DNA of 64,000 bases from Stegostoma tigrinum. Taxonomy: Eukaryota. Positions within the stretch are counted from its first letter, which is position 1. Each line of letters opens with the position of its first letter. Location of the stretch: positions 10,113,441-10,177,440 of the forward strand of contig NC_081371.1 in the NCBI RefSeq assembly GCF_030684315.1, given 5' to 3'. Positions 3,188 through 63,510 of this stretch are shown piece by piece. The notes beneath the pieces were generated by a model. It was not told the DNA's origin, did no database searches, and saw only the letters and a program-made list of their open reading frames with translations. A program made the position numbers and the translations under genes.

Positions 3188-3322
3188 TCTTGTTCAAGTA
3201 GGGTCACTGGACTCAAAACATTAACTCTGCTATCTCTCTTACAGATGCTGCGAGATCTGAGTTTCTCTAGCAATCTCTAATTCTGTTTCAGATTGTCAGC
3301 ATCTGCAGTTCTTGCTTTTAAC
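3188..3322 (+). mobile_element. Neptune-like PLE 3' end, single arm, with decayed hammerhead
   Basis: gggtcactggactcaaaacattaactctg...cagatgctg...agcatctgcagttc matches the terminal module of other copies (17461-17590, 33178-33413). Confidence 0.7.
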
Positions 3323-4459
3323 ACATTTCAAAAGTTGAACAAAATTTGGAAAATACAGACCTATCTTATGGCATAGCTAACAACTATAACATGGCTAGTA
3401 TTTCTCAAAGAACGAAAGATAACGTGAAAGAGGGTGATGCAGAAATTTTTAAACTGTTGAGAAATTTGCATCCAAAAATAATCTGAGACTCCATGCACCG
3501 TATGATTGAGAATGAAAGGGATAAAGGAAACTTCAATGCTTTGGCATTTAAATAGTGCTCGATCATCTTGTTCTTGAAGTAATGTATGCAAAATGAAAAG
3601 TAAGTGAACAAAATCCAAAAAAAACTCACTTGGTTGATTGAAAAAAAAACTAGGATAGAATGCCAATCTAACAGGCAACTAGTTATTGATCCTTACCCTC
3701 CAGATATATTTCTCAATATTAGAACAAAGCTTTTTTTTGGGCACTGCATGTATGGACAACGATGAAGGGACTGAAACACTACTCCCTAGAGCCTAACAAC
3801 ACTTGTTATCCAGATTTATAGTTAAAGAATGGCCACTCAAACAATGCAGGAGGGCTGTCAGAACCTATGATACCATAGTTATCCAGTCATTGCAAATTCA
3901 GGAGACCATTATGTATTACTAATCAGTCTTAAAATTAATCTCCCCCCAATCACGAATATCAGGTCTATTCCTTTACAAGCAAAATTGCACCAATATTTTT
4001 GACTAAATGCCTTTCCTTTATTTGAAACAAATAAATTATGTAAAGCATATCCATTTGAAATTAAAATAGGTTAGCGTCAGATGGAGAACAATATGATACA
4101 TCTTTTCTTACACATCCGACCCTCAACGTTCCCAGATGGGTCAGCACTTAAATGATTATGAATTTGGCAATAGTAGATATAAACCAAACTCTCATATGCA
4201 TATTAGATAAAAGAACAATCTCCTACCTCTGAATCTGTTCCCCAGAGGAATTCCTTACAGCTTCAGGAAAACATTGGACAGACATGTGGCAGTTTAATAT
4301 GGCGAGTATGAGACTGCTTCAAGAGAAAAACAGAAGAAATTTAATGCAAAGATGCTGGAAAATGAGTGATCAGAGAGGCATATCTAATATTTTCAATAAC
4401 TTTCTCGAAATTGTTTGGACATGCAGATAAAGCCATAGAAAGGTTCAGAGAATTAAGAG

Positions 4460-5190
4460 TTAGTGTCATACAGCATGTGAACAACTGGTGCATGCCGACC
4501 AGGTTTCCCAAACTAAACTAGTCCCATTTACTTGTGTTTGGCCCATAACCTTGTAATGTTTCCTATTCAGGTAACTGTCCAAATGTCTTTTTAAATGTTG
4601 TAACTGTATCTGCATCTACCATTTCCTCTAACAGTACATTCCACATACAAACCAACCTCTGAAAAGTTGCCCTTCAAGTCCCTTTTAAATTTTTCTCTTC
4701 ACACCTTAAAATTATGCCTTCTAGTTTTGAACTCCCTTTCCCTCGAGGGATTCATCTTATTTATGAACCTTATGATTTTATAAACCTTTATAAAGGTCAC
4801 CCCTCAACCTCCTATGCCAAGGAAAATGTCCCAGCGTCTCCTTTTAACCCAAACTCTCCAATCCTATTAACACCTTTGTACATTCTTTCCTGCAACTTTT
4901 CCAATATAATAATATCTTTAATACAGCAGGACAACCAGAATTCTACACAGCACTCCAAATGTGGTCTTACCAACAACCATAAAATGACATCCCAACTCCT
5001 ATACTCAAGGAAGGCAAGCATCCCATACGCTTTCTTAACCATCCTGTCTACCTGTGACACAATTTTCAAAAAAACCACGTACCTGAAACTCCTAGTTCCT
5101 CTGTTGAGCAACCTACCATTAACTATATAAGTCCTGCCCTTGTTCAGCTTACCAAAAATGCAATACCTTGTATTTAACAAGTTACATCAC
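4460..5190 (-). mobile_element. CR1 LINE 3' fragment
   Basis: ORF 4812-5180 (VKKAYGMLAF...LVRPHLECCVEFW) plus a CR1 3'UTR. Confidence 0.85.
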
Positions 5191-7689
5191 ACCGCAGCGT
5201 ACTAAATAACCAAAAGGCACGTCTCATAACTAAGTGAAATTTGTCTCTGAATTTGCTTCAAATGATCACTAGATAATATCTTTGCATTGAGAAAAACTGC
5301 ATATCTTCCTGTCCAAACAAAAGGAGGACAGAAGCTAATTAAATCACTCACCTCACCTAAATCAACTCAAACACATATTGAACGTCCTATTGTTTATATG
5401 TTTCTTAACTTAATAATTCGCTTAACCAAAGTAACCTTTTCTAGATTACAAGTGACCACACTTAAAAAGTAAATACATTAGTACAAAACACTTTAAGAGT
5501 ACAGTGATACTTTGGAAAGCACTATTTAAATGAAATTTTCACCAGACAAAATAAATTGCAAGTATAGTGTATATAACTTCAGTATGATCTGAAGTATTAG
5601 AATGGTACAATAACCTACTTCAATCAACATTATCCCTCATTTTACATTCCATTCACTTAAATTGATTATTGAGACGATAGGTTTATTTCATTACCTTTTA
5701 CAGTTATGTGGCTCGATATCAATTTAGATAAGGAGGCCAAATCCTCCAAAGCAAAACTTATTTATTCTTGGATTTGGGTTGGTACAGCCTAATAAATTAA
5801 CTTATCTGTGGCAAACTGATAATGGAAGAATCTGAGGATGTCAAAGATATTTCCTGCCACAAGATGTCATAAAATACAGCAAACTTTGTTTTACCTGGCA
5901 CCTGATGAACCAGCATTCTAGATAAACTGACAAAAATTATACACCACAAATAACAGAAGTTAATGTATTATCACAATGTCAGAGGATGCCAGTGAGAAGG
6001 TGCTCTAGCAGCAAGTTCTAATGGCAAAGTTACATTATTATTTGTGATGTATGCTGTAAATGAAGTGTAACAGTGATGTATATACGCCTGCATTATGTTT
6101 CTATTGTTTAACAAGTTTTTTTTCTTGATCGAATGGAATATTTCATCAACCAGGCACACTCTTGTTCCCACAGGTGTCTGTTAATAAAAAAATTTGCTAT
6201 GACACACATTATTGTAGTTTGTTCATGTTCAAGTACTGAATTAGATTTATTTATAAATAAGGATATACAGAAGCAAAACATACAAGCAAGCAACATAATA
6301 TTAATTAGAATAAAAACAAATTATGAAAACACTCAGTTGAACTGGCAGCATCTGTGAAAGATCACAGTTGATGTTTTACGCCCATGTCTAGAACATTCAT
6401 GCAGTTTTTATGGTGCGTGACACATTAAATGGCAAATGTATCAACTAATTACATTTATTTACACCACTGCCTTTACTTCTTAAAATAAAGCATTACTGAT
6501 AAAATGCATTGAAAGAGCACTATATTGTGGCAGAGAAAACAACAAATAACAAAAATTTGTATACCAGTCAAATGTTAAAAATAAAGGCATTTATTTGGTT
6601 AAATATTAAATATAACCAACGATTTGGTTAGCTGTGCATTAAATTCCTTATGCAAGATTTCCTCAGCTAATAAAACTTTCTGGAATCCAGCTCCCCAACT
6701 AGGAAAAATATTACAAAAATGATCAACGTAATCTAAACCAATAGCTGACATCATGCAAACAGAAATTGGTTTGAGCAGGTCTAAGGAACAAAAGTGAAAT
6801 CTAGCAATCAAAGTCTGACAATGTAGTATCTTTGGAAATGAAGAAAGAGAATCAAAACAGGTTTAAGAACTAGTAGATAAATGAATAGAAAATATACAAA
6901 TGAAACCTTTAAGATGTAAGAACTGTGTACCAAACAAGAACGGCTGTTGATTAGCAAAGATGGTAATCACAAAGCAAATGGCTAAATCTATCCTGCAAAC
7001 CATGCAGAATGAATGTGAGATTTGCAAACAAAACTTGAATTTTATAGGTCAGCAGCTATTGTATTAGATTATTTTCTTAGCTCTTAAGCCTTCACATATT
7101 TGAAGCCTGTATTTGGAACACTTTCATTTAGACATTGATAAGTGAAAGATACAACATGCATGAGGTTTGCAATAGGGATCCTAGTTTCAGAGAGAAGTCT
7201 TGAAATGGAATGATTAATGGCTTACCTGCTTCAAAACACGATAAACTGGTGCTTCGTGTCGAGAAGATGACGGCAGCAGGCAGTTTACATCTCCTTTATA
7301 CTACTGATGATTTAAGGAAAAATAGACATCTGAGCAGAAGTTCAAACATTGAAATGCTAACTTGTGATCAATAGACAGCTGATTAGCAGACTACTCTGAC
7401 AGGTTTACACAGATCAATGCATGTTAAATGAAATACATTAGAAATCATGGAAACATGTCTATAAAGAAAAATACTAAAACATTTGCAGAAAGGGTAACAA
7501 AGAGGCTGTGAAAACTGCACTAATAGAGGTAACAACACAACAAATAAAACAAGGGACACAACTAACAGGATAGAAATAATTGCTACACATTTTTCAGGCC
7601 AGCTAATTATAGAAACAAGGTAGGGAAAAAAATGCAAGTGAATATGAATAAAGAATATCGAGACATTTTAACTGATCTGCATATGAAGA

Positions 7690-10249: not shown

Positions 10250-10464
10250 ATAGCAGGAACTGCAGGTACTGGAGAAAATGAGAAAACAAGGTGTAGAGCT
10301 AGATGACCACAGTAGGCCAAGCAGCATCAGAGGAGCAGGCAGGCTGACCTTTCAGGCTGAGACTCTTCTTCAGAAAAAGGGTCTAGGCCCGAAACGTCAG
10401 CCTTCCTGCTCCTCTGATGCTGCTTGGCCTGCAGTGTTCATCCAGCTCCACATCTTGTTATCTC
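10250..10464. mobile_element. Palindromic Neptune-PLE mini-element
   Basis: Inverted arms around ~10372; 13-bp TSD TATTATTCTGCTG at 10237-10249 and 10465-10477; hammerhead 3' half gggtctaggcccGAAACGTC. Confidence 0.85.
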
Positions 10465-11820
10465 TATTATTCTGCTGCTAAGTTGAAGTTCTGCTGAAAC
10501 AAATTTTCTTGTTAAAGTAGGAGGGTCAAGCTTTTTAACTTTATTGGCTGCCTACATACAACACTTAGATTTTTGCAGTTATCTTGTAAATGGCGAATTA
10601 CTATTGCTGTTTATCCTAAACAGTGGGTACAAATGGTTGTTCATGCTCTAATTTTGCATTTATTCACCAAGTGAGACAATAGCAGCAAGATCTCCTTTCG
10701 AACTAACAGACCTTTGAAATTATAACAGCATAACCAGCAAGAAAGAAACACATGTGTAAGTAGAGAATTTGAGAGAGTCAGTATATCAGAACTTATAGGC
10801 TGCAAAATAGCCAATGTGCTGTAATTTAAACACCACTACATTAAGTCCATGAAGTCTAGTTTGATCCAGAGATCCTGTCTGAAGTCAGTATTCAATGACT
10901 GGTGAGATGATATTCCAGTTTCAAAGTTGCTTCCAATCAAAATCAAGATAAAACACCTTAGAATAACTGCCATTCTTTCCTAATAAATAAAAATTAATAC
11001 TTGAAATTGTGATACATGATCTCAAAGCTTTTATACTTAACTTTTAACAAAGATTCATTGAACGGAAACATTAAACGTTTCTCAGTCTGTCGAAGATGCC
11101 TAATCTGCTGCCAGAATTTTATCCAGAATTTTATTTTTATTTTGGAAGTATTATAATTTTGCTTTCATTTGGCTAGATGAGCCAAATGCATAAACTGAAA
11201 TGCTATAATTTACAAGAGAAGTAACAGTTTAAAGATATAATCCAGCAATTTGGGACTATAAAGTTAATAAAGCAAAATAAGGAGGATGATACAATTTCTA
11301 CAAAACATGACACTACAATTGTGATGTATTGAAAGGAAATCACAATGCCCTCAGTTTGCGGGGGAGAGGGAGAGAGCGAATGAACTTTACACATTGTAAG
11401 GGAAGAAGAGGAGCTCAAAAATGGACTTATTTTTATACACAAGTTTTCAATCTGTGTTTCTCATTCCTAATGCCTGCAGTGGTAATTGAGAATCACTGAC
11501 TGATACATCATAGATTATTTTCCCATTGCAGTTAACTATGTTTAATGGGAATTGTTTGCATACTTAGATTGCAAGATACTGTTTCCCCAAGGGGGTGAAA
11601 ACAATTTTGTCCAGCCAGTGTGGAGGTTTGCATCATGACAATGAATAATGAATGCACTTCAAAAGAAAAACTCAGGAATTACAAAAAAGTATTAAAATGT
11701 CCGGTCCACAAATCTTTCATAAGAGATAACAAGGTGCGGAGCTAGATGAATACAGCAGGCCAAGCAGCACCAGAGGAGCAGGACAAGAGCCTGAAACTAT
11801 TGTCTAAAATAATCTGGAGT

Positions 11821-11880: not shown

Positions 11881-12021
11881 TTAATCACTCAGCTCCTCTT
11901 CATCACTGAAATATGCACTCTTTTTTATTCGTGGACGTTTCGACAGTTCAGATGTTGAACATTCACTTGCATCACCAGCAGTCTGTTTACGTCTAAGCTC
12001 TTCCGCCTCAATTTTTGCTTG
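11881..12021 (-). CDS. ZCRB1: ZCRB1 last coding exon ([12 protein letters not shown]...[18 protein letters not shown])
   Basis: Acceptor tttttctcaacag; 141 nt ending in TAA; matches the conserved ZCRB1 C-terminus [18 protein letters not shown]. Confidence 0.97.
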
Positions 12022-12489
12022 CTGTTGAGAAAAAGTGTTAAGATATTATGAGGACACTGATGTCATTCATTTATTTATGAAACACACTCAGCCAGACTTT
12101 CCAATTCAAATTTTCTGAAATGCTTGTTGAATATCATAACCGTTACACTACCAAATTATCCATGGGCTGTGATTTCTATGGATGCAAGTTATAATGGTAA
12201 ACTAAATAAACCTGGTACTTATTGAATAAAAACAAAAAGGGGGAATTTATGGTTACTGGCTTACTAATGCACTTCAGAGAAGTTATTATGCAGGCTCTAC
12301 CTAGTCTGGCCTATGTGTGTCTTCAGTCCCAAACAATGATCATTCTCCCCTCAGTCTCATTCAACACCAGCTTTCAGTATGTCCTGTCCCGCTATTAAGA
12401 TGGTAGATTTGACCTGGAATCATCAGTATGGTTCCAGACCTCATGAAGTATCATGGGTTAGAGTCAGCTAAAGACAGGGAAAGTACTGA

Positions 12490-12727
12490 AAATAAAACAA
12501 GAACTGCAGATGCTGAAGATGTGAAATGAACTAAAACTAAGTGCTTGAAAAACTCAGCAGGTTTGGCGGCATCGGTAGACAGAAACAGAGTTAATGTTTT
12601 GAAACCAATCATCCTCTGTCAGAACAGTTTGACATTGGATCTTTGGACTTAAAGCATTGTCTGCATTTTGCTCTCCACAGATATTGCCACTCTTGCTGAG
12701 TTCCTTGAGCACGCCCCATTTTTGTTT
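12490..12727. mobile_element. Old palindromic Neptune-PLE mini-element
   Basis: aactcagcaggtttggcggcatc...cagagttaatgtttt mirrored by ctctccacagatattgccactcttgctgagtt. Confidence 0.65.
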
Positions 12728-13249
12728 GCTCTAGAGAAAGCATTAACTAATTCTCAAATGCATGGCTCCCAAAAACATCTCTAAGTATGCATCAAGTTGC
12801 AGGTGACAATTTTCACGACTAAAAGCAAATTAGTATTACCACCACTAACCATGCTGTCCAAGTCCGAAAGACACAATAGCTGGGCTACACCAATGTGAGG
12901 TGATAAGGGATCCCGTTCAGGAATAACCTATTGAACCTTAGCTTACCAATTTTCCTCTCACAGGCATGGTTATACAGCATGATTGTTGAAAAGGCAGCAA
13001 GGGTACAAATAGTAATGGTACTCCCATGTTGATTTGGATGTCCAGAAAGGCAAATAGTCCAAACGTGTGATGAAATCTACAATCTCATTATCCAGAATAC
13101 CCTCCCAACTACATTAAAAAGTACAGAAAAAAGTCAGTTTAATGGCTACTATAAAAAAGCATACAAAGGAGCATACTTCTGTGAGCAGCTACAATACAGG
13201 AATTTCTACATGTTAAACAACATTCAGCAGATCAGGCTAACAATATCCA

Positions 13250-13620
13250 GGCAGACGGTGACATAGTGGTAATATCACTGGACTAGTAGCCCAGAGACCC
13301 AGTCTAATGTTCTGGGGACACAGTTTGGAAGCCACAATGACAGATAGTAAAATGTGAATTCAATAAAATCCAGAATTAAAAGCTAACCTAATGGTGATCA
13401 TATAACTATTGTTATAATTAACAATGTTGGTTCACCAATATCCTAAAAAAGAAAAGAAATCTGGCCTGGTATACGTAATTTTAGACCAATAGCAATGTGG
13501 TTGACTCTTAATTGCCCTGTAAAATGGCTGAGCAAGCCACTCAATTAAAAGGTGATGAGGGATGGGCAACAAATTCCAGCCTTGCCAGTAGCACCTGCAA
13601 CTTAAAACAAGAATTTAAAA
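13250..13620 (+). mobile_element. tRNA-derived shark SINE (3' tail shared with L2-like LINE)
   Basis: tRNA-like head (tagtggtaatatcactggactag) and tail gggatgggcaacaaattccagc; homologous to 60561-60910. Confidence 0.8.
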
Positions 13621-14309
13621 ATGTTCAAAACCTATGCACCAGAACTAACTTTTTCACTCTCAAAATATTCCAATGTATTGATGATTCTGGCATTCACATG
13701 CAATGTGGAAAATTGCATTGGAATACTTCATCCTCAAAAAAAAACACAAATATACCTCACCAGCTGCTGCCCTAGTAGTCTTCTCAATCATCAGCAAAAT
13801 GTTTGAAAGAGCCATGGAAATTCTCTTGGGTGCTCTGACCAGTAATTATCCCTCATTCAATGTCAAAACAAAAAGAACAGATCACAGGTCATTACAAACT
13901 TACTGTGTGAAATTTGGCTACAGTATTTCCAACTTTGTAATGCTTAAATATTTTACAATCGGGTACTTTAGGAGTATTAAGCACAAGGTGTTCTACACTG
14001 CAGTGCCACCATGTACTTATCTGCAAGCACATGACTGAATTTCCATGTCCGTTCTTAAGAATATCAGGCTCCAAAGCATCTCACTGTTTTGATTAAGGAA
14101 AATATGCAACTGCCAGTAAATTTCATCAACATTAAGAGAACAATTTATTAAGTATAGTAAAACCAATCCCGGCAAAACTGAATGCACGAATCCATTGAAA
14201 TTTCTTTAGTTGCTGCATTCAAATTTGACGCAAAAGGAAGGCATACAACATGGTTGCCGGCAGCTAACAACTGCAATCTGAGGACTTAAAGAAGTCTTGA
14301 AGAAATGCC

Positions 14310-16569: not shown

Positions 16570-17021
16570 ATAAGGTTTTGGAGGAGATTTGTAACTTGGG
16601 TTGTGGGTGTTGAGGTTGGTTGGCTCGCCCAGCTAGTTTCTTGTATCGCAGACGTTTCGTTACCGTGCTGGGGAACATCCTCAGTGCAGCTTTTGACGAA
16701 GCAGCGGTGTGTTTTCCCGCCTGGTTTTCAGAATCGAGTCCGTTGAGCTAGATTGCCTCACTTCCAGTTTTCCTTCATAGTGTAGTGTATATGGGGCGAG
16801 TTCAATGTGTTTATTAATAGCATGTTTGGAGTAAATTTGTAGGTTGGGTTGTGGGTATTGAGGTTGGTTGGCTCGCTGAGCTGGCTTCTTGTATCACATG
16901 CTATTAATAAACACATTGAACACAATGACGCTTCATCAGAGGCCGCACTGAGGATATTAACCAGCATGATAACGAAGTGTCTGCGACACAAGAAACCAGC
17001 TCGGTGAGCCAACCAAACTAC
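16570..17021. mobile_element. Poseidon-like PLE derivative: partial tandem plus inverted arm
   Basis: 8-bp TSD ATGTCACT at 16562-16569 and 17022-17029; two minus-strand copies of the 3' terminus and one plus-strand inverted arm; homologous to 49060-49996. Confidence 0.85.
16648..16687 (-). ncRNA. Minimal type I hammerhead ribozyme motif
   Basis: Minus strand reads GCA CTGAGGA T GTTCCC cagcac GGTAAC GAAA CGTC/TGC: intact core, 5/6-bp stem II, 3-bp stem I, palindromic ACGT stem III. Confidence 0.8.
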
Positions 17022-18045
17022 ATGTCACTCTTTCTCCATACCTCTTTCCTCTCCTTTGCTTCAACCACACTCCCATCATCTTCCTTCCTGTACACATCTC
17101 TGGTCCCTTTCTATTTTCTCTTTTGTTTGTTCCTCTAGCCAGCACTTCTGAATTGTACACACATCGCCGCCACCAACCACACCCCAAAAAAAACTACCAC
17201 CACCACCATATAGCATACCCAAATATGAACTCCCATCCTTAATATCCACCTGCTCACCTACTCCTGCTATCATCCAGGTTGCTTTCAGCTTGCTGCTCTC
17301 AGCTTTTGTTGTCACTTATTCAGCTTCTCTTCTGTCCTGGCCTGCTATCAATAATCCCCTCATTTGCCTACCCCTTTCATATCTCTGTCTCTACCTATCT
17401 GCTCACCTCTTCCGCCAAATTCATCTTCAGCATAAATATCATTTTTTCCTAGCCACTATCAGTTCTGGTAAAGAGTCACTAGACTCAAAACGTTAACTCT
17501 GCTTTCTTCCCCCAGCTGCCAGACCTGCTGAGCTTCTCCAGCAATTTCTGTTTCAGATCTCCAGCAGCTGCAGTTCTGTGCTTTGTTTCAGAGTTGTAAC
17601 TAGCAGTTTAAGTTAATAGTTCATAATTGTTTACCTATGTTTAGAATTTCATTATTTGTAATAAAGAGTTCTTGTTTCATACAAAAACCTGGTCAGTGTT
17701 TTCTGTTAAACTGAGGTAAATCGGGGACTTCAAGTACTTTGATCCTGGAAATTGTGGAGCTCGAGTATCAGTGTTCTTACTGGATCATGTCAAGACAAAA
17801 TAAGGAGAAACTGTTTCCAGTGTGACAAGATCAGTAATCAGAGGGCACAGATTCAAAGTTAATTTCTCATTTTATTCCTTTTTTTTTTCAAAGAAATCTA
17901 TTCACACAACAAGCTATAATGATTTGGGATGTGGTATCTGAAAAACCTGATGCAAGCATGTTCAATAGCAACTTTCAAAGGAGAAGTGGATACTTTGGAA
18001 GAAAAAGGTTAATTGAACCGCTCTGTCAAAAAGCTAAATCATGTT

Positions 18046-23159: not shown

Positions 23160-23210
23160 GATAATGGGAACTGCAGATGCTGGAGATTCCAAGATAATAA
23201 AATGTGAGGC
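23160..23210 (-). mobile_element. 51-bp insertion of the extreme 3' end of the Neptune-like PLE
   Basis: gataatgggaactgcagatgctggag... flanked by 15-bp TSD TGGTTAGAAATTATA (23145-23159 and 23211-23225). Confidence 0.9.
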
Positions 23211-33177: not shown

Positions 33178-33413
33178 AAACAAAGTTGCTGGAAAAGCTT
33201 AGCAGGTCTGGCAGCATCTGTGAAAGAGCAAACAGAGTTAGCGTTTTGGGTCCGGTGACCCTTCCTCAGAAATTTCTGAGGAAGAGTCACTGGAGCTGAA
33301 AAAGTTAACTCTGTTTTCTCCTTCACAGATGCTGCCAGACCTGTTGAGCTTTTCCAGCAATGTTGTTTTTGTTCTTGATTTACAGCATCTGCAGTTCTTT
33401 TGGTTTTTATTAA
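33178..33413. mobile_element. Palindromic Neptune-PLE mini-element (second subfamily)
   Basis: Arms centred on cttcctcagaaatttctgaggaag; 12-bp TSD AGATTCCTGCAT at 33166-33177 and 33414-33425; divergent CTGAGGA hammerhead cores. Confidence 0.9.
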
Positions 33414-36615: not shown

Positions 36616-36619
36616 ACTG

Positions 36620-40133: not shown

Positions 40134-40347
40134 GATGATGGGAACTGCAGATGCTGGAGAATCCCAGATAACAAAGCGTAGAGCTGGATGAACACAGCAG
40201 GCCAAGCAGCATCTCGGGAGCACAAAAGCTGACGTTTCGGGCCTAGACCCTTCATCTGATGAAGGGTCTAGGCTCGAAACGTCAGCTTTTGTGCTCCCGA
40301 GATGCTGCTTGGTCTGCTGTGTTCATCCAGCTCTGCACTTTGTTATC
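40134..40347. mobile_element. Young palindromic Neptune-PLE mini-element with overlapping hammerhead cores
   Basis: Near-perfect inverted arms centred on ttcatctgatgaa; 12-bp TSD CTACCTGAGCGT at 40122-40133 and 40348-40359. Confidence 0.92.
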
Positions 40348-47309: not shown

Positions 47310-48450
47310 TTAAAATGCAAAGAAGAGCTATAGACAACTCGGCAAGGCTCTCGCGAAACGCAAACTTCCTCTATCTTTACCTGGATATTTTTCCACCTAA
47401 GTTAAAAACTCCCCTAGCGCAGTCAGGTCGCTCCCTTCACAATTTACGATGACTCAGTTCATAACACAGCAGGTCGGCCGCCATCTTGCAGCTGTCGATC
47501 CCTCCTCCTCCTTCTCCACGTCGCGCGAGATTTGAAGTTGCTTTGCGGAACGGGACAGCGGAAAACATCCCGTGCTCTCCGCTTCCCAAAGTGTAGAAAG
47601 ACTTTTACAGTTGAACTCTCCCATGGACACGCGGCTGGTGCGATCACCGGCTGATTCGCGCAGGGCGGCATTCCGCCGAGAGGGGGGGCGGAGAGAGTCC
47701 GAACATTTGTTTTCGTGTTTGACGTTTTCTGACATGAGGAGGGCGGGGGAAGGGAGGGTGGATTGAAACCGGTTCCTGGTGGTTCTCCGTCAAGGCAGTG
47801 ACTGAGAGATTGCATTCCTCCTCCCCCGCATCCCCGTGCTTTTCAAAGGTTAATGCCGAAAACAGTGATCTTAGGACGTGAGTAATTCCCGGCGGTGGGC
47901 AAGGGTGACGGTTGGTCTCCGACAACCGGGAAGGTGACATCTCGCGGGGTCTCGCGCGCGCCGGTTCCGCACAGGCGTCAGGGCCATTTGAAGCGACTCG
48001 AGCCAGGTTCGGCCGCTCGCGCGTTTCCAAACGGCCCCCCTCCAGGTAAAGCGAGCGTCTCCCTAGCAACAGGCCGCGCGCTCTGGTTTGTGTCCGCCGG
48101 CTCCAGCCGATGGGCCCCGCGGGATCGTATGGGGGATAGCCGCTCGGGGTTGGCTTCGGTGGGAAGGAGATGGTGCAGTAAGCAAGGCAGGACTGACTGT
48201 CTCTAACCGGCCGTGCATAGGTCTAGGCAGCTCGTGTGATTTTCCTCCCTCTCGTGCAGTTGGGCCCCACCGTTGTTCGTTACCGTTGTTGTTATTGGAA
48301 ACTGGCGGCGGTGGGATTTCACCCAGCGCCTTTATTTCCGCTGGATTCGGCCACTAGTGCGTTGCAGGGACAGTCCTGCTGCTATAATAATCAAAAATCA
48401 AATCAGAAAGTGCCGAATTTCTCCAGCACGTCCGGCAGCATCCGTGGAGA
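47310..48450. promoter_or_regulatory. CpG island / probable bidirectional promoter
   Basis: Only CpG-dense, GC-rich region in an AT-rich window; YY1 motif (47475-47488); TCTCGCGAGA-like motifs (47349, 47521, 47940); outward-facing splice donors on both strands. Confidence 0.85.
47381..47520 (-). other. ZCRB1: Probable non-coding exon 1 of ZCRB1 (5' end approximate)
   Basis: CAG/GTAAAG donor at 47381/47380 on the minus strand at the CpG-island edge; YY1 site CAAGATGGCGGC typical of TSS-proximal 5'UTRs. Confidence 0.6.
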
Positions 48451-49136
48451 GAGAGAGATAAACAGAGTGAACGTTTCGAGTCCCAATGTGGCTATTCTGT
48501 GTTGCTGCTGTCACTTTGCTATCGGTACCACTAACGAATGCACTTCGACACAGAGGTGATGCTGGAACCTGAGCATCAGCCTCTTGCTAACTGTCAGTTC
48601 ATCCCCCCCTCCTCCTTTGCCCTCCCTTCTTCCCTCCTCCTCCTTTGCCCCACTTGTTAACTGTCAGTCCATTCCCCGTCTTCCTTTGCCCTTCTTCCCA
48701 CCTCCTTCTTTGCTCCTTCTTCTCTGCCCCTCCTTTGTCCCCCTTCACTCCATTTCCCAGTTCATCAGGGCCCAGATGTGCAGGATCATTTGTACAGGAG
48801 GCAGCCATCTCGCATCACTTTGGATTTATGCATTACGCTTTGTCTTTATCGGTGAGAGCGTTTTGAGCGACTGTTGCCTTAGAACAGAACTCCAAAATCA
48901 GAACATTAAAATATTTTCATTTTTAAGGAACTGACCAGGATTTATGTACGTCCTTTGGATAGTTTAATTCAACAAATCTCGAAGATTGTCAGGGTCTCTG
49001 CTTCAAGTCATGACAGTACTTCGGTCTGGCAACTAGTCATGTGGGTAATTTTGTTATCTGGCGAGTTTTGAGAAGATTTGTAGCTCAGGTTGAGGTTCTG
49101 GATGTGAGTTTGCTCGCTGAGCTGGAAGGTTAGTTT

Positions 49137-49176
49137 TCAGACGTTTCGTCACCATTCTAGGCAACATCATCAGTGA
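49137..49176 (-). ncRNA. Minimal type I hammerhead ribozyme motif
   Basis: Minus strand: TCA CTGATGA T GTTGCC tagaat GGTGAC GAAA CGTC/TGA. Confidence 0.85.
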
Positions 49177-49917
49177 GCCTCTGACGAAGCGCTGGTGTTA
49201 TGTCCCGCTTTGTATTTATCTGTTTAGGTTTCCTTGGGTTGGTGGTCATTTCCTGCATTGGTTACGTCACTTACTCTTCTTTTTCTCAGATGGGCTCCAA
49301 ATCAATGTGTTTGTTGATGGAGTTCCGATTGGAATGCTATGCTTCTAGGAATTCTCGTGCGTGTCTCTGTTTGGCTTGTCCTAGGATGGATGTGTTGTCC
49401 CAATCAAGTGGTGTCCTTCCTCATCTGTATGTAAGGATACGAGTGACAGTGGGTCATGTCGTTTTGTGGCTAGTTGATGTTCATGTATCCTGGTGGCTAG
49501 CTTTCTGCCAGTTTGTCCAATGTAGTGTTTGTCACATGATCATCTATAAAATACCTTGCAAGAACTGTGACAAACACTACATTGGACAAACAGGCAGAAA
49601 GCTAGCCACCAGGATACATGAACATCAACTAGCCTCAAAATGACATGACCCACTATCACTCGTATCCTTACGTACAGATGAGGAAGGACACCACTTTGAT
49701 TGGGACAACACATCCATCCTGGGACAAGCCAAACAGAGACACGCACAAGAATTCCTCGAAGCATGGCATTCCAACCAGAACTCCATCAACAAACACATTG
49801 ATTTGGAGCCAATCTACCACCCGCTGAGAAAAAGAACAGGAAATGACATCACCAACCCAAGGAAACCTAAACAGATAAATAGAAAGCGGGACATAACACC
49901 AGCGCTTCGTCGGAGGC

Positions 49918-49957
49918 TCACTGATGATGTTACCTAGAATGGTGACGAAACGTCTGA
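49918..49957 (+). ncRNA. Minimal type I hammerhead ribozyme motif
   Basis: TCA CTGATGA T GTTACC tagaat GGTGAC GAAA CGTC/TGA: intact core, 6-bp stem II, 3-bp stem I; predicted cleavage after 49954. Confidence 0.88.
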
Positions 49958-51249
49958 AAACTCACCTTCCAGCTCAGTGAGCAAACTCACATCCAGAATT
50001 TTGTTATCTTTCAATTTATAGCATCGTAGAAATTCAGCAATACATATTTCAGCCTCTTGAGTCTGCAATGTCTTTCTGTTCGCTTTTGTTTGGCTTATAC
50101 CTCAGCTCCATTAAACTCCCATTGCTCCATATCCACCTTTGATCCATATCCCTTGTTTTCTTTTCAAACAAACATTTCAGTCGTGAAAATTTCAGTTGAT
50201 CTGGTGTTGTCATCCCGTTGGGGAGTAAGTTCCATAATTCTGTGATCCTCTGACTACATGAATAAATTAGCAATCTGCTCTAAACTTGTGTATTTGATTT
50301 TCTTCATGTAACATCCATGTGTTGTCAATCAGTTGACACAATAACCATACAGTTGCACAGATACCTAAGCCTGTAAAATGTGCTTTCATGGCTTATGCCT
50401 AAAAAGCTACGTAGGATTGCAAATTTGAAGTTGGTGCTGGGGAATAATTCTCTGAATTCTGACTGAACAGCAGTCTGTAAGGATGGCAGCTTCTGTAACT
50501 TTATAAGTATTTTTGACAAAAAATACAGTTTTGAGACTCGTTACCAGTTTTGCACTGATGAAGATTTCTGAATGCTGGTGAAAGTGATAATTCCTCTGGA
50601 GAGAGGAGCCAGAGCCAAGGCTGCAGGACTATGGCTGAATTGGCTGTACAAGGGCTTGGCACAATATTCACAAAGCCATAGCGATAGGCATTTTTATAGT
50701 TAGGGAAGAAGTTGGGTGTTTTTGTGGTTGTAGATGTGAATCCAGGATGGTATAGTATCTTCTTAGTGCCAAAGTCAAGATTGTTTTTGAGTGGCTGCAG
50801 AGCACTCTGCAGGGGGCAGGATAAATAGCCGAAGGTAACAAGTTATATCGGAGCTCAACAGTGACATGGCTAGAAAGAGGGATGAGGTCCTGCTGGCAAT
50901 TTTTAGTAAGGTAGGAAGGTATTAAGAAGGACCTCAAAGGAAATAACATCTATTTGGAGGGTTTAAATTAACTTGGTATGAGACCAGGAAGTTGGAGGTA
51001 ACGTTAGAAATGTTAATCATAGCACAGAGAATTGGGACAGGCATAATACAAAAATAATCATGTATTTAGTGTGGTCAAAATCAAAGGAAAAGGAATAAAG
51101 CTTGTGTTTACTGTATTTGTATGTGAATGAGTGGAGCATAATAAACTCGAATTTCTGTCACAGTTGATCATGTGGCACTATGATGTTGTGATAGCAAGAG
51201 ATTAATCTCAGAAGGACAGGACTGGGTACTAAATAGTTCTTGATACAAG

Positions 51250-51760
51250 GAGACAGTAAGAGACTTGGAAAATGGACAGCTTTGGAGTGGAGAGATTTTG
51301 AAGCTGGTGAAGTCAGTATTTAGGCCATTGGGCTCCCACGGTGAAATATCCCAATGGCCTGAATACTGACTTCACCAGCTTCAAAATCTCTCCACCCCAA
51401 ACCTGTCCATCTTCTGACTCACCTATCCGCTCTACCTTTCCCACTGACCAACCACAGTAACCACTTATAAAAACGAAGTTGCTGGAAAAGCCCAGCAGGT
51501 CTGGCAGCATCTGTGAAGGAAGAAACAGAGTTAACGTTTCGGGTACGGTGTTCCTTCCTGAGAACAGTACACAATAACCACTTAACTGCACTCATCTAGG
51601 CACATCCCACCTACCCCCCACCCCCCCCAGCCCACTCCCCTCCATTTGATTGTGGGCCCTACCAGTCCTTAAGAAGGGTTTCGGCTCGAACATTGACTTC
51701 CCTACTCCTCAGGTGATGTCAGACCTGCTGTTCTTTTCCAGCTTCACATTTATTGATTTC
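51250..51760. mobile_element. Neptune-like PLE 3' fragment with 5' inversion and a nested PLE arm
   Basis: Inverted repeat ~51274-51338 / 51349-51408; degenerate 15-bp TSD at 51235-51249 and 51761-51775; nested arm 51468-51573 with TSD TAACCACTTA. Confidence 0.75.
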
Positions 51761-55110: not shown

Positions 55111-55582
55111 CTCTAAGTGTGAAGTTGCACATTTTAGTGGAAGAAATGAAGAAAGGCAATATGAAATAAGGGATACAGTTCTAAAATTGGTGCGTGTGCA
55201 GGAGGACTGGGGTTACATGTACGCACATCTTTGAATGCAGACGAGTTAATAATGCACTTGGAATTCTGGACTTCATAAATAGTGACACAGAGTTCAGAAA
55301 CCTGGATGTTGTTGTAAACCTGGTTCAACCTGAGCTGAATTATTTTGTTCAGTTCTGGGCACCACAGTTTAGAAAGATTGTAAAGACATTGGAAAGGGTG
55401 CAGAAAGCTTTACCTGAATAGATTGGGGAATGAGGGTAATTTTACAAAGTTAGCCTGGAGACACTGGGCTCTTAGATGAGAGAATATTTGATCAGATATT
55501 CAAGATCACGAAGACTCTGGACAAAGTAGGTAGGGAGAAACGTTTGCCATGGTGGAGAAATTGAGAACAAGACAGAGGAAGT

Positions 55583-56131
55583 GGTAGAGGCAGGCACAGT
55601 TACAACATTTAAAAGATATTTGGGCAGATATATGAATTGGAAAGGTTTAGAGGGATATGGGCTAAATGCAGGCAAAAGAGAACCAGTTTATTTTGGGAGA
55701 CTTGGTTGGCATGGGCAAGTTGGACTTAAGGGTCTGTTTCCAAGCTGTATAAGTTTATGGCTGATTTAATGTGATTGACAAGAACAAAAGTTGGCATGAG
55801 GGAAGATGTGTTTTTACACAGATGATGGTTAGGATCTGGAATATACTGCCTAGGATTATGGTGGAGGAAGAATCAGTCATGGCTTTCGTAGGGATTTTGG
55901 GTAATTATCTGGAGTTAATTCATAGTCATTGGGAAGCAATGGGGATGTTAGAGCCATAAACTTATACAGCTTGGAAACAGACCCTTAAGTCCAACTTGCC
56001 CATGCTAACCAAGTCTCCCAAAATAAACTGGTTCTCTTTTGCCTGCATTTATCCCATATCCCTCTAAACCTTCCCAATTCATATACCTGCCCAAATATCT
56101 TTTAAATGTTGTAACTGTGCCTGCCTCTACC
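55583..56131. repeat. Inverted pair of 180-bp CR1 3'UTR copies
   Basis: 55583-55762 is the reverse complement of 55952-56131 with 4 mismatches by my count. Confidence 0.92.
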
Positions 56132-57207
56132 TCTGGTAGTTCATTCCACACATGAACAACCCTCTGTACGAAAGAGTTGCCTCTCAGGTTCCTTTTGAAT
56201 CATTCTCCTCTCTCCTAAAAATTATTGAGACTACTTACATTATTCTAAAAGAGTGCTAGCTTGGATACACTGGTCAATTGGCTTCTCTCTACTGTAGCCA
56301 TTCTTTTTTACTGTGAAAGAAAACCCTCAAAAACCAGGAGGTAAATTGAGAATTGGTTTATCTGGTACCCAGCTGTGGTAATTTCACAAAGTCACAGAAT
56401 TGAAAGCATTTTGCTAAAGCTTGCCATCAACAATAAAATGTATATGTAATTCCTTAACATCATAAACTCTCCCACAGCATTCCAGAGATCAGTTTAGCCA
56501 AAACAAAAATTAACCAAAGAGGGAGTTATTGACCAAAACCATGGTAAAGGATCGATTTAATGTCAGGTCAAATGGGCGCAAGAGACATGGTGATGCAGGG
56601 GTTTGGGGAGGGAAGTTTAGAGTTTTGCCTTTGGGACCTGAACGCAAGGTATGAGGATGGAAGCTCATATTTGTGGGGGCGTGGTTTCTGCAGTAGAATT
56701 GCATGCATTTTTGGTTTTCAGTGCTTCAAACGTGACTTGAATATTTGAAGTGTCAGAAACCTTTTGTTCAAGAGTGGGTCAAAACCAAATTTCCAGAAAA
56801 AGATTATGACTTTTCTAAATTTCAGAGAGAAGCAGAGGACAGGGGCCACAAACATTAGTTTTGTTCTTCTTAAGAGTTTAATGTGAAAATTCAGCAAATT
56901 AGCCTTTATCCATGACTCTCAGGAAGACACAATAATGAAGAGAGTCATACCTAGTGAATGTGCTGAAACTCATTGAAAAGACACTGCATGAGGCCTTCTC
57001 AGTTGAGTAAGAAATTTTAGAGTTAAAAGTAAGAATGAGACCACTGGGATTGAATGGCTGTAAATATATTGAGAGAAAAATTGGTTGCTTTCTTTTGTTT
57101 TTACTGTTTAAAGTATCTTTTCAAATTGTCATGTACATAATGTGTTTTTTATCTTCCTTTTCATTGTGTAATAAACTTTGTTCTCTTGTTTAAAGTAATT
57201 AGTAATT

Positions 57208-57424
57208 TTAAATAAAAACCAAAAGAACTGCGGATGCTGTTAATCAGGACCAGGAACAAAACCAAAGTTGCTGGAAAAGCCCAGCAGGTCGGGCAGCATC
57301 TGTGAACAAAAAAAGGGTTAATGTTTTGGGTCTGGTGACCCTTCCTCAGAACATCAACTCTGTTTTTTACCTTCACAGATGCTGCCAGATCCGCTGGGCT
57401 TTTCCAGCAACTTTGCTTTTGTAC
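57208..57424. mobile_element. Palindromic Neptune-PLE mini-element (second subfamily) inside a probable solo LTR (~56750-57549)
   Basis: Inverted arms aaagttgctggaaaagcccagc / gctgggcttttccagcaacttt; TSD ATTAGTAATT at 57198-57207 and 57425-57434. Confidence 0.85.
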
Positions 57425-57642: not shown

Positions 57643-59975
57643 ATAATGGGAACTGCAGATGCTGGAGAATCTGACATAACAAAGTGTGGAGCTGCATGAA
57701 CACTGCAGGCCAAGCAGCATCTTAGGAGCACAAAAGCTGACGTTCCGGGCCTAGACTCTTCATCAGTAAAGGGGGAGGGGGAAAGCGTCCTGAAATAAAT
57801 AGGGAGAGAGGGTGAGGCGGATTGAAGATGGATAGATGAGAAGATACATGGAGAGGAGACAGAAAAGTTAAAGGGGCGGGGATGGAGCCAGTAGAGGTGA
57901 GTGTAGGTGGGGAGTTAGGGAGGGAATAGGTCAGTCTGGGGATGACAGACAGTTCAAGGGGCTGGGATGAGGTTAGGAGGAAGAAAATTGGGGTGCGGCT
58001 TGAGCTGAGAGGTGGGGATAGGTGAGAGGAAGAACAGGTGAGGGAGGCGGGGATGATCTGGGCTGGTTTTGGGATACGCTAGGGGGAGGGGGAGATTTTG
58101 AAGCTGGTGAAATTCACATTGGTACCAGTGGGCTGCAGAGTGCCCAAGCAGAATATGAGTTTCAGTTCCTGCAACCTTCGGTTGGCATCGTTTTGGCACT
58201 GCACGAGGCCCAGGATGGACATGTCGTCTAAGGGATGGGAGGGGGATTGAAATGGTTCGCGACTGGGAGATGCAGTTGTTTTTGCGAACTGAGCGTAGGT
58301 GTTCTGCAAAGTGGCCCCCAAGCCCCCGCTTGGTTTCCCTAATGTCGAGGAGGCCATAATGGTTACAGTGGATGCTGTATACCACATTGGCAGATGTGCA
58401 GGTGAACGTCTGCTTTATGTGGAAAGTCTTCTTGGGGCCTGGGATGGGGATGAGGGAGGAGGTGTGGGGGCAGGTATAGCACTTCCTGCGGTTGCAGGGG
58501 AAAGTGACAGGTGTGGTGGGGTTGGAGGGGAGTGTTGAGCGGACAAGGGAGTCACGGAGAGAGTGATCCCTCCGGAAAGCAGACAAGGGTGAGGAGGGAA
58601 AAATGTCTTTGGTGGTGGGGTCGGATTGCAGATGGTTGAAGTGTTGGAGGATGATGCGTTGGATCCAGAGGTTGGTGGGATGGTACGTGAGGATGAGGGG
58701 GATTCTCTTTTGGTGGTTATTGCGGGGAAAGGGTGTGAGCGATGAGTTGAGGGAAATATGGGAGACACGGTCAAGGGAGTAATCGACCACTGCGAGGGGG
58801 ATGTTGCGGTCCTTGAAGAAAGAGGACATCTGAGATGTACGGGAGTGGAATACTTCATCCTGGGAGCAGATGCGACGGAGGCGAAGGAATTGGGAATAGT
58901 GGATGGCGTTTTTGCAGGAAGGTAGATGGGAGGAGGTGTTTTCTAGGTAGCTGTGGGAGTTGGTGGGCTTGAAATGGATGTCGGTTTCTAGATGGTTGCC
59001 TGAGATGGAGACAGCAAGGTCCAGGAAGGTGAGGGAGGTGTTAGAGATAGTCCAGGTGAATTTAGGATTGGGGTGGAAGGTGTTGGTGAAGTGGATGAAC
59101 TGTTCGATTTCCTTGTGAAAGCATGAGGCAGTGCCGATACGGTCATCAATGTAACAGAGGAAGAGGTGGGGTTTAGGGCCAGTGTAGATACGGAAGAGGG
59201 ATTGTTCCACATAACCTACAAAGAGGCAGGCATAGCTTGGGCCCATGCGCGTACCCATGGCTACCCCCATTGTCTGTAGGAAGTGGGAGGAATCAAAAGA
59301 GAAGTTGTTGAGGGTGATGGCGTTGGTGGAGGGGGACTGGTTGGGCCTGTAGGACAGGAAGAAGCGGACGGCCTTTCGGCCATATGCATGGGTAATGCTG
59401 GTGTATAGGGACTGGATGTCCAGAGTGAAAATGAGGTGTCGGGGCCTGGGGAATTGGAAGTTCTGGAGGCGGTGGAGGGTGTGGGTGGCGTCATGGACAA
59501 AGGTGGGGAGTTCCCGGGCCAAGGGGGCGAAAATTCACAAGCTTCAAAATCTCCCCTTCCCCTACTGCATCCCAAAACTAGCCCAACTTGTCCCCAACTC
59601 CCTAACCTGTTCTTCCTCTCACCTATCCCCTCCTCCCACCTCAGCCGCACACCCATCTCCTACCTACTAACCTCATCCCGCCCCGTTGAACTGTTTGTCC
59701 TCCCCGGACTGACTTATGCCCTCCCTACCTCCCCACCTACACTCACCTCTACTGGCTCCTTCCCCGCTTCTTTAACTTGTCTGTCTCCTCTCCACGTATC
59801 TTCTCCTCTATCCAAATTCGATCCGCTTCCCCCTCTCTCCCTATTTATTTCAGAACCCTCTCCCCCTCCCCCTTTTCTGATGAAGGGTCTAGGCCCGAAA
59901 CATCAGCCTTTGTGCTCCTAAGATGCTGCTTGGCCTGCAGAGTTCATCCAGCTCTACACTTTGTTATCTCAGGAA
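57643..59975 (-). mobile_element. Neptune-like Penelope element, 5'-truncated, with inverted pseudo-LTR
   Basis: 522-aa ORF 57954-59522: RT (LDIQSLYTSI, GVAMGTRMGPSYA, YIDD, TFLDL), Cys linker (CNRRKCYTC), GIY-YIG (NVVYSIHC...ETKR..HFAEH); inverted arm 59531-59970; 9-bp TSD GTGCAAGAG at 57634-57642 and 59976-59984. Confidence 0.95.
59874..59907 (+). ncRNA. Hammerhead ribozyme core motif (weak stem I)
   Basis: CTGATGA A GGGTC ta GGCCC GAAA CATC; the mirror copy at ~57736-57766 (minus) has GGAA. Confidence 0.6.
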
Positions 59976-61328: not shown

Positions 61329-61555
61329 TAACACAATGTGGAGCTGGAGGAACACAGCAGGCCAGGCAACATCAGAGAAGCAGGAAAGTCGATATTTTGG
61401 GTTAGAACTCCTCATCAGAACTCAGACCCTTCTGATGAAGGGTCCCAACCCAAAACGTCAACTTTCCTGCTTCTCTGATGCTGCTTGACCTGCTGTGTTC
61501 CTCCAGCTCCACACTGTGTTGACTCTGACTCCAGCATCTGCAGTTCCTGCTATCT
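61329..61555. mobile_element. Palindromic Neptune-PLE mini-element
   Basis: Inverted arms with divergent CTGATGA cores (~61412-61418 minus, 61432-61438 plus); TSD CTAA(T/A)TTATATATT at 61315-61328 and 61556-61569. Confidence 0.85.
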
Positions 61556-62199
61556 CTAAATTATATATTCAGCCTCGGCTTGGGCAGTAATGAATATAGA
61601 AATTGGAAGGTAGAGAAGTAAATGCTTGGCTGAAAAGATGAAGGAGCTTTAGATTTCTCGGACAGCCGGGCTGAAGCTAGGTATAAAAGAACGAAAACAG
61701 TGGAATGTTTTGTAAACAAACAGGATCAGAACCATTGTCCTTGCAGGGCATCTTTCTCATGCAGTTGCGGGAAGTTTAAACTTGTTTAAGTCAGCAACGA
61801 GGCGAGAACATCAGAAAGGAGAAACAATGTGCACGAAAGAGTAGGAGAGATTGCGTGAGAAGTTGTCAGGAATTAGGTGGAAACAGGTGAGGGAATAAAA
61901 TAATTTGTTTGCCTACACTGCATGTAGGTGAACATGTAAAGCCTGGCAGATAAATTTGATGAGCTACAGGTGCAAATAACCACATCAAGTAATTTAATTT
62001 TAGGATTTTAAGAACATTCTTTATTCCAGTTCTACTTTGGGATCAGACCCAACAACTTGTTCTCTCGCAGATCAATGATTGTCCAGATCTGGAGAGATGA
62101 ATTACTTTTACTTACAATTTCTACTCTTTTCCAACGTTATCCTGATCTATTTCCCACTCCTGTCTTCCCTTTTCTTCCTTTCTTTCTCTGTCTCAATTT

Positions 62200-63510
62200 C
62201 CGAGAAGAGCCCGTCCACTGTTATTCATTGCAAGCTGATCAGCTCCCATGACTGCCTCAAGCACACTTCTCAGCTTGCCTCCAGTAATGATCTCATTCAT
62301 TTCTCTTATTTTCGGTGTTACATCTGTTCTAAAGTTTCTACTTTCCACAGTTGTGTTTCGGGCATGTCTTCCTTTTACTTTGAGGATGCCTGCACTGTGA
62401 TTGAGGCAGCAGGGCGCTGGGGGGCTGTCTCATCTGTGTCTGATCCATTCCCACTTCTGTCTGCTCCCCGTCCCCCAACTCGAGCCAAAATGGGGTTTCG
62501 CCTGACTTCTCTGTCCGTCCCACCAACTTCCATATTGAAAGGTCCATCCTCTGTCATCTTTGCCACCTCTGGTATGATGCCGCCACCTGCCACCAAATGG
62601 ATCTCCTCCTCCTCAGTTGGCATTCCAGAGGGAAAGACCCCTCTGTGATGCCCTGGACTACTTCTGTCACTCACAACACTTCATACCGTCGCACAGCATC
62701 TTCCCATTTAATCGTAGGAGGTGTAACACTCACTCTTTCACCTTCTTTCCCAATGTCCAGGATTCTATTGCACTTGTGCCAGTAAAGCAGCCGTTTACTT
62801 GTATTTCTTTGAGCCCATACTGAATTTACCTGTTGCAATGCTATTTCCTCCACACAGGGAACGTGGTCTTGCTAACGTCTTCATGGAGTATCTCTGTTCA
62901 GCCCGCAGATTTGACTCTGACCTTCCATTTGTTTGCCATTTCAATGCACCATGCACCATCTTGCTCTTATGTTCATGTTTCAGTCCTAGGTATACTGCAG
63001 TGTTCCTGTGAAACCCAATACAAGCTGGAGGAACATCATCTCAATGTACAGTTTAGCACTTTACAGCCTTCTCGCTTTAGTACTGAGTTCAACAACTGTG
63101 AACTGTGCATTTCAATTTAAATTGCTTTTCCCCTCAATATCTGTAACTTGTTTTCATGTTTTTGTTTTCAGCAGGTGTTGACCTTTATTCTGCTCATAAC
63201 ATCTAAACTGAATCAATGCTTTGTTCCTTAATTAAAACTATTACCATTAACCTTTGTTCTGTTATACCGTTGATTTTCAATTCCATAGCTGTTTAATGTT
63301 TTCCAGAGTTTCCTTTTTGTTTCAGTTACCATCTCTTTTTGTCATAAAACACATGACATTTTCCCTTCAATTTCGTTCCAACAGCGTAGTATTGGAGTGG
63401 AAGATCAACTCTGTTTCTTTCTCCATTTGATGCTGCTAGACCTGTTGAATTTCTTCAATACATTCTGCTTTTATTTCATATACCCAGAATTTGTTGGATT
63501 TTGCTTTTTG
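62200..63510 (+). mobile_element. Old Neptune-like PLE remnant (thumb/GIY-YIG/3' end)
   Basis: Degenerate homology to the 57954-59522 ORF (FPFNRRRCNT, VKQPFTCIS, YKLEEHHL) and the terminal module at 63380-63510. Confidence 0.75.

Follow-up and report, generated by a model that had tools for sequence, protein, structure and literature searches.

Palindromic insertions with decayed hammerhead motifs in a 64-kb stretch of the Stegostoma tigrinum genome, probably by-products of Penelope-like elements

A stretch of 64,000 nucleotides from the shark Stegostoma tigrinum (contig NC_081371.1 of assembly GCF_030684315.1, positions 10,113,441 to 10,177,440; hereafter the window, in whose own coordinates all positions are given) carries a dense set of insertions in which two copies of the 3' end of a Penelope-like element (PLE) face each other as the arms of a palindrome, with traces of a hammerhead ribozyme in the arms. 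The question raised by this locus is whether such fold-backs form a retroelement class of their own, non-autonomous and ribozyme-bearing, as a first-pass annotation of the window had proposed, or are by-products of ordinary PLE insertion. The fold-backs are real and derived from PLEs, and the point worth noting is that the starts of the short arms pile up at the edge of the hammerhead; a new class of ribozyme elements is not supported by the elements of the window.

Local inverted repeats were found by self-comparison at nine of the ten sites for which fold-backs had been claimed (10250, 16570, 33178, 40134, 49060, 51250, 57208, 57643 and 61329), and the tenth, at 12490, is weak and was recovered by profile search alone (right arm E = 3e-5, 69% identity between its arms). 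Across the elements the identity between arms spans 69-96%. The ten elements together occupy 5,586 bp, or 8.7% of the window, and the high local density of insertions was borne out: the profile census added single arms at 3192, 6324, 11723, 17462, 48376, 51465 and 63393 and a few weak matches, and gave no matches on the reversed window. The range given for the whole system did not hold in the same way, since both of its ends (3188 and ~63400) are single arms with no palindrome there. Six of the ten elements are short palindromes with a tight size mode of 214-239 bp, and the sizes form a continuum from single arms of ~50 bp with a target site duplication (TSD) up to 2.3 kb. Exact-pattern scans for further copies in bacterial and archaeal genomes, with two patterns, returned 0 matches each.

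The TSDs, announced as 8-15 bp long, are clear in eight of the ten elements (8-14 bp): 13 bp at 10250, 8 bp at 16570, 12 bp at 33178 and at 40134, 13 bp at 49060, 10 bp at 57208, 9 bp at 57643 and 14 bp with one mismatch at 61329, all with p <= 0.007 against a null of 3000 random position pairs given the identical search of +-8 nt (the element boundaries were placed by eye, so that these p-values are somewhat optimistic). The duplication at 51250 is marginal (11 bp, one mismatch, p = 0.025), and at 12490 the search under the same null gave no clear duplication (p = 0.15). Among six single arms tested, a 15-bp TSD was found in two (23160 and 51468) and none in four. That one arm is longer than the other was confirmed: in nine of nine measured elements a 3' excess of 28-51 nt, the tail, is present on a single arm (51250 was left out because the 3' part is missing from its left arm). 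By hand calculation, one-tailed pairing in all nine would have a probability of 0.5^9 = 0.002 if the two ends were picked independently.

The PLE origin is well founded, with matches to reverse transcriptase (RT) and GIY-YIG domains (RVT_1, E = 9e-4, at 57957-59534; GIY-YIG, E = 0.003, at 49185-49640; both under the Pfam cut-off) and with shark proteins and an RT plus GIY-YIG protein among the relatives. Two PLE lineages had been proposed; two clades are probably involved, and the copies fall into three families, which we label A (57643, 40134, 10250, 61329 and 51250), B (33178, 57208, 12490 and the majority of single arms; identity to A 52-66% as a rule, 47-70% overall) and C (49060 and 16570). 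The family A insertion of 2.3 kb at 57643..59975 consists of a 5'-truncated Neptune-like copy with the tail on the minus strand and a 440-bp inverted tail-less copy on the plus strand. Its stop-free frame of 526 aa (57957..59534, minus strand) comprises the C-terminal half of a PLE RT, a linker with a zinc knuckle (CX4CxxC) and a damaged GIY-YIG domain, and aligns over 478 aa, at 45% identity, with an RT plus GIY-YIG protein of 889 aa; relative to that protein it begins at residue ~402, lacks 8 residues and is altered in the GIY-YIG region. The frame had been listed as an RT and endonuclease (EN) reading frame; it is truncated and damaged, and an autonomous 2.3-kb copy was rejected on the same three features. 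Among the best 120 of 262 protein relatives, those from Rhincodon (80%) and Stegostoma (78%) are followed by Chiloscyllium and rays, in keeping with a carpet-shark host, and a Hemiscyllium relative is 83% identical; several shark and ray gene models among these relatives include PLE sequence, i.e., annotation contamination or exonisation is common. No full-length PLE copy in partial tandem (with direct pseudo-long terminal repeats, pLTRs) was found in the window, where a partial direct repeat occurs at 16570 only; this bears on the autonomy of the copies and not on their PLE origin.

Judged from its sequence, the family A copy at 57643 is Neptune-like, with a zinc-finger-like linker (CX2-5CxxC) between RT and EN, a feature of the Neptune clade (PMC8557442) that is also present in Nematis. 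The single link of family B to Neptune would be the remnant at 62107..63492 (plus strand), in which an old Neptune-like reading frame (62107-63105) precedes a B-like 3' end in decayed form (63393-63492). In family C the arms hold an open frame of 36 codons that runs from inside the hammerhead to the AC-rich tail (the copies are 50% identical over 40 codons), and the reading-frame start in the hammerhead together with the AC-rich tail suggests the Penelope/Poseidon clade; the C copies themselves contain neither the linker nor the RT. A search with the family C arm peptide returned one exonised Hemiscyllium isoform and 11 proteins of 54-301 aa, none of full-length PLE size; in the Hemiscyllium isoform, an RP9 model, the first 36 residues come from an arm of family C (compared with 49060-49167, minus strand). 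A peptide encoded by A or B arms was sought at protein starts among 120 proteins, and only a C-terminal read-through in one of the 120 was found. Fragments at 35870-36776 (plus strand) resemble the RT/thumb region of another PLE, with a weak tblastn match at 35871-36092 alone; the frame at 36160-36381 had no match to a Neptune-type protein or to Pfam.

The hammerhead ancestry of the motif stands. A loose hammerhead pattern matched six times in the whole window against 1.4 expected, a strict descriptor (CTGANGA, stem II of at least 3 bp, GAAANNTH) retrieved five cores (16684-, 40256+, 49173-, 49921+ and 59877+), and three cores pass a stricter test for which the null has a mean of 0.02 and a maximum of 1 in 100. 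In sequence the motif fits the minimal type I hammerhead form of PMC4209133. The claim that it is present on both arms in most copies failed, since a full core on both arms occurs in one of the ten elements only, 49060, where the minimal hammerheads at 49140..49173 (minus strand) and 49921..49954 (plus strand) are complete, each with a stem II of 6 bp and a stem I of 3 bp. A further complete minimal core lies at 16651..16684 (minus strand; stem I of 4 bp, one mismatch in stem II), and the core at 59877..59904 (plus strand; stem I of 2 bp) has a broken 15.2-16.2 pair. In the short palindromes one of the 12 arms has a full core, the right arm of 40134 (40256..40283, plus strand), with stem I lacking (1 bp); the motifs of the other short arms are either interrupted within the core or mutated, in many cases at GAAACG, which contains a CpG. 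At the junction the left arm of 40134 lost C3-U4, the right arm of 10250 the whole CUGANGA and the right arm of 57208 most of its motif. An Rfam search gave 18 matches at E <= 10, with no hammerhead family among them and none at the gathering score; the list is headed by microRNA (miRNA) models, all below cut-off.

The covariation evidence for the hammerhead fold is at most suggestive: for A and B together 78.7% of cells are paired versus 11-55% when the alignment is slid, with four two-sided pairs (20 of 500 shuffles) and a score reached in 41 of 500; in family C 89.6% are paired, with one two-sided pair and no excess over shuffles. Isolated cores fold barely better than shuffles in six of seven cases. 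As the two motifs lie on opposite strands, there is one sense motif per transcript and no tandem partner, and a transcript of 40134 is predicted to be an almost perfect hairpin (-188 kcal/mol). Forcing the hammerhead would cost a predicted 53 kcal/mol in the whole 40134 element and 69-73 kcal/mol in the whole 49060 element versus 4-11 kcal/mol in isolated arms, and in four of five whole elements tested stem II is predicted to form with a probability of no more than 1e-9. The best reading is that the hammerhead is a passenger from the parent pLTR, without a role in the palindrome. RNAalifold proposed for A and B a long-range stem between the tail and the arm interior, the pairs of which hardly vary and leave it unsupported. 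In the tailed arms of A and B (e.g., 57643-57775, minus strand, and 33272-33413, plus strand) a 12-nt block of the tail is near-invariant between the two families and could pair with the arm interior, which would place the tail-less end in a loop; covariation lends this pairing no support.

The motif does mark a position. By junctions read by hand, ten of the 12 short arms start in the interval from ~5 nt upstream to 3 nt downstream of C3 (10250 right, at +6 to +8, and 57208 right, at about +24, fall outside it; 12490 is uncertain), and the longer elements end ~50 to 1,770 nt upstream, which leaves a spike at the 5' edge of the hammerhead. Because the short arms extend upstream past the cleavage site, their template was uncleaved. 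Among the short elements of family A, 10250..10464 has its tailed arm on the minus strand (left) and its tail-less arm on the plus strand (right), 40134..40347 is the youngest (arms 96% identical), and the A-like 61329..61555 has a tail-less left and a tailed right arm with both cores mutated. Of the B copies, 33178..33413 is tail-less on the left and tailed on the right, again with both cores mutated; 57208..57424 combines a tailed left arm (G12 of the core changed to A) with a tail-less right arm that begins a few nt before the cleavage site; and 12490..12728 is very decayed.

Six short copies have six different centres: an overlap at the core (40134), a run of five A (10250), a short templated insert (61329), AAATTT (33178), AAC (57208) and AACAGTT (12490). 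A palindrome that was itself mobilised would transmit its centre, and the six different centres therefore speak against a master family. In the phylogenetic tree the two arms of 40134 form a starred clade and those of 61329 are united with support of 86/81; 11 element-specific shared sites stand against three side-shared columns in family A, and five against none between 33178 and 57208. Arms that are 69-96% identical and, in family A, group by insertion point to independent events over a long time. We therefore consider it probable that the fold-backs are one-off insertions, dead on arrival, for which the RNA of autonomous Neptune-like and Poseidon-like PLEs was the template: two internal sites would have primed synthesis on both DNA strands, and the products would have been joined head-to-head. 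The short palindromes are best read as the shortest end of the known PLE insertion spectrum. The separate class of the first-pass annotation is not supported, on the same grounds (no identical centre, arms grouping by insertion, a size continuum) and on the broken hammerheads in 11 of the 12 short arms.

The following steps would account for the structures. A PLE RT-endonuclease would nick both strands of AT-rich DNA 8-15 bp apart, as the TSDs here suggest, and from each nick reverse transcription would start at one of two internal RNA sites, spaced by 28-51 nt, so that a tailed and a tail-less arm result; the one-tail rule is observed, and the coupling of site to strand would be its simplest cause. 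Lone arms with their own TSD, one tailed (23160) and one tail-less (51468), indicate that both sites can prime. Both cDNAs would then run toward the 5' side of an uncleaved RNA, and in the short class they end at the hammerhead's 5' edge, a position that is observed and most likely reflects the RNA 5' end or a protein-bound block. The cDNA ends would be joined head-to-head, presumably by a repair route; overlaps of 1-3 nt or short templated inserts are seen at the junctions. Afterwards the copy would decay neutrally, decay itself being observed. For lizard Poseidon, PMC11167929 reports that in vitro the protein cleaves AT-rich sites on both strands and extends both, that two internal RT start sites bound the tail and that uncleaved RNA is the main substrate.

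Several observations weigh against this account. In the accessible text of PMC11167929 two-strand priming coupled on a single target is not demonstrated in vitro, and the fragment at 16824-16898 begins exactly at the cleavage site, the one hint in the window that cleaved RNA is sometimes used. The whole 57208 element, the core of which is mutated (G12), is predicted to loop out its hammerhead, with a stem II probability of ~0.65. The distinct centres have low power, being drawn from just six short copies of several subfamilies; the A copies fall in different subfamilies, and the B centres might all be variants of a single junction (AACAGTT at 12490, AACAGT at 51466, AAC at 57208, AAATTT at 33178). 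In addition, the B arms are not resolved by element in the tree, two side-shared columns occur among three B elements, and the protein search found no full-length shark protein carrying the arm-encoded N-terminus.

One or more palindromic master copies might instead be transcribed and re-inserted in trans by PLE proteins as a family resembling short interspersed elements (SINEs). Such a family would explain the size mode of the six short copies and the partial similarity of the B centres, and the literature offers precedents: cis-sequences of the pLTR can be mobilised in trans (PMC3846280), non-autonomous PLEs are known from Chlamys (PMC8557442) and a short RNA is enough in vitro (PMC11167929). 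However, no centre is identical among the six copies, the family A arms group by insertion, the hairpin of a palindromic transcript would conceal the protein-binding region, and no promoter was identified, and we regard this explanation as unlikely. The form in which a master is most plausible, a family B palindrome of ~215-240 bp that is carried by PLE proteins as a head-to-head passenger, with copies on the order of 1e5 (six per 64 kb extrapolated to a genome of about 3 Gb), seems to us equally unlikely. The possibility that the fold-backs are by-products of another route, in which the cDNA from the tail site folds back, copies itself and stops short of its origin (self-priming on an antisense template, as proposed in PMC3846280), is a serious though rather improbable contender. 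It accounts for the one-tail rule and for the near-perfect centres at 40134 and 33178, and in 57643, 10250, 57208 and 51250 it is the tailed arm that extends further upstream. It fits less well with the tail-less arm that reaches further upstream in 49060 (by 29 nt) and in 40134 and 61329 (by 1-3 nt), or with the lone tail-less arm that has its own TSD (51468). Later deletions at palindrome centres could create such asymmetries of upstream reach, so that self-priming is weakened by them only.

Two further explanations are much less credible. Non-LTR retrozymes, in which self-cleaving monomers are circularised and re-inserted, would share the type I hammerhead ancestry, derive from pLTRs and are present in one chondrichthyan genome (bioRxiv 10.64898/2026.07.22.740005). 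Circularisation of this type requires direct tandem hammerheads, and none are present: direct tandem units are absent from the self-comparison and from a tandem repeat scan of the window (four rows, none hammerhead-related), the motifs lie on opposite strands with one per transcript, and 11 of the 12 short arms are broken. Minimal hammerheads, moreover, need dimers or protein and cleave poorly (PMC4209133, PMC11167929). The retrozyme reading is thus unsupported and was rejected as very improbable. The short, non-coding, inverted-repeat structure also recalls MITEs (miniature transposable elements with inverted repeats), i.e., DNA transposon derivatives with long terminal inverted repeats; but the TSDs vary from 8 to 15 bp, the two termini differ by 28-51 nt, and the arms derive from an RT-GIY-YIG element, of which they are the 3' end. 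Fixed-length TSDs with symmetric termini had been named in advance as the mark of a MITE; the MITE reading, which has next to no probability in our view, was rejected on the variable TSDs and asymmetric ends.

The longer fold-backs and the single arms fill the rest of the size range. The family C (Poseidon-like) composite at 16570..17021 carries its tailed arm and the end of the reading frame on the minus strand, its tail-less arm on the plus strand and, within it, the second tailed family C fragment on the minus strand, mentioned above. In the 937-bp family C fold-back at 49060..49996 the junction lies in the GIY-YIG coding region. The old A-like fold-back at 51246..51760 (arms 51257-51332 and 51350-51425) is not the plain palindrome of two 3' ends that had been described, since its junction lies at the end of the reading frame and most of the 3' region is gone from its left arm; nested in it is a single tail-less arm of family B (51468..51569, minus strand; TSD with one mismatch). 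The other single arms comprise a tailed B arm at 3192..3318 (plus strand; TSD search negative), a decayed B-like arm at 6324..6384 (minus strand; profile E = 8e-8), a tail-less fragment of family A at 11723..11783 (minus strand; no clear TSD), a tailed B 3' end with upstream pLTR sequence at 17462..17584 (plus strand; 4-bp stem I kept, core mutated), a tail-end insertion of family A of ~50 bp at 23160..23210 (minus strand) and a B-like tail-less arm at 48376..48483 (minus strand; TSD search negative). A pyrimidine-rich tract that ends in CAG (17400-17466, plus strand) lies 2 nt before a family B core and resembles a splice acceptor; in D. virilis Penelope an intron ends at helix I (PMC4209133).

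The host gene is ZCRB1 (RNA recognition motif plus CCHC zinc knuckle), on the minus strand at 11890-30684, with coding exons near 30684, 25290, 21535-21424, 21330-21220, 19439 and 11910. The coding exons run from 30684 to ~11890, and the elements at 12490 and 16570 are therefore intronic. A CpG-rich stretch at ~46-50 kb is a putative ZCRB1 promoter, in which case 33178 and 40134 may lie in intron 1; a search for relatives of a frame in the CpG island (47457-47789) was negative. Downstream of the ZCRB1 stop codon, family A arms at 10404-10465 and 11722-11783, the latter the fragment just beyond that codon, are inverted and 1.25 kb apart and could pair in a long 3' untranslated region. An 85-bp inverted pair (24505-24589 and 29406-29490; 89%), 4.8 kb apart, brackets the exon at 25290, and its first arm is a weak match to the B profile (E = 0.04); a 290-bp direct repeat (29496-29784 and 31734-32018; 85%) lies on either side of the first coding exon. 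Elsewhere, a 183-bp inverted repeat (55580-55762 and 55952-56134; 97%), only ~75% identical to the window's other remnants resembling 3' ends of long interspersed elements (LINEs), may reflect a fold-back, or local conversion, of a repeat other than a PLE, and two young LINE copies with an RT frame (164-1869 and 44185-44914; 92% over 731 bp) are unrelated to the fold-backs.

How PLEs form inverted ends and tails is an open question: the PLE cycle is called undefined in PMC8557442, and PMC11167929 gives a first in vitro outline. If the one-tail rule and the stop at the hammerhead edge hold genome-wide, shark assemblies would be a very large natural data set, with which two-strand priming could be separated from fold-back self-priming and the RNA 5' end or block located. 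In annotation, palindromes of this kind can be mistaken for MITEs or miRNA precursors, and at least two fold-backs, being in ZCRB1 introns, are probably transcribed as long hairpins. Should mobile master copies exist after all, the fixed 5' boundary at the hammerhead would mark a protein-bound RNA element, and the copies within introns would yield long double-stranded RNA hairpins in large amounts. An expansion of PLEs in whale shark introns has been reported (bioRxiv 10.1101/443036), and a literature search, with most subscription papers outside it, found none on short shark PLE palindromes or on 5' ends piling up at the hammerhead edge.

Among known systems, non-LTR retrozymes (PMC7229834; bioRxiv 10.64898/2026.07.22.740005) are also short, non-coding, related to pLTRs, equipped with a type I hammerhead and flanked by larger TSDs; they are head-to-tail tandems that release circles, whereas in the window elements the units face head-to-head, each strand holds a single sense motif and a tandem is lacking. 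The minimal type I hammerheads of metazoan PLEs (PMC4209133) have CUGANGA with one bulged base, a stem II of 4-6 bp, GAAA, a minimal stem III and a short stem I, features that the window cores share. The hammerheads in pLTRs described in that paper are mostly lone motifs from truncated PLEs, and in Schistosoma opposite-strand pairs occur, 100-700 bp apart. The window differs from that description in a stem I of just 1-2 bp in family A and in the decay of most copies, and sharks are not named in the accessible text of PMC4209133.

Poseidon of Anolis carolinensis (PAc; PMC11167929) has its hammerhead at the junction of pLTR and reading frame, with the frame starting within it, as in family C. 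The window elements also resemble it in the two RT start sites that bound the tail (in PAc in an AC-rich region ~110 nt in), the uncleaved template and the AT-rich target. Inverted products are not reconstructed in the available text of the PAc study, and families A and B differ from this type in being Neptune-like, with arms that are not an open frame matching an N-terminus. The typical PLE insertion combines 5' truncation, an inverted copy, a one-sided tail of 30-40 bp, a TSD of 8-10 bp and junction palindromes (PMC3846280, PMC8557442, PMC8969392). Like these endonuclease-bearing PLEs (Neptune; Penelope/Poseidon), the window elements show a truncated inverted copy, a tail at one end, a TSD and a palindrome at the junction; unlike those described so far in the accessible texts, they consist mostly of the two ends alone (214-239 bp), lie densely together and have their 5' ends piled up at the hammerhead edge.

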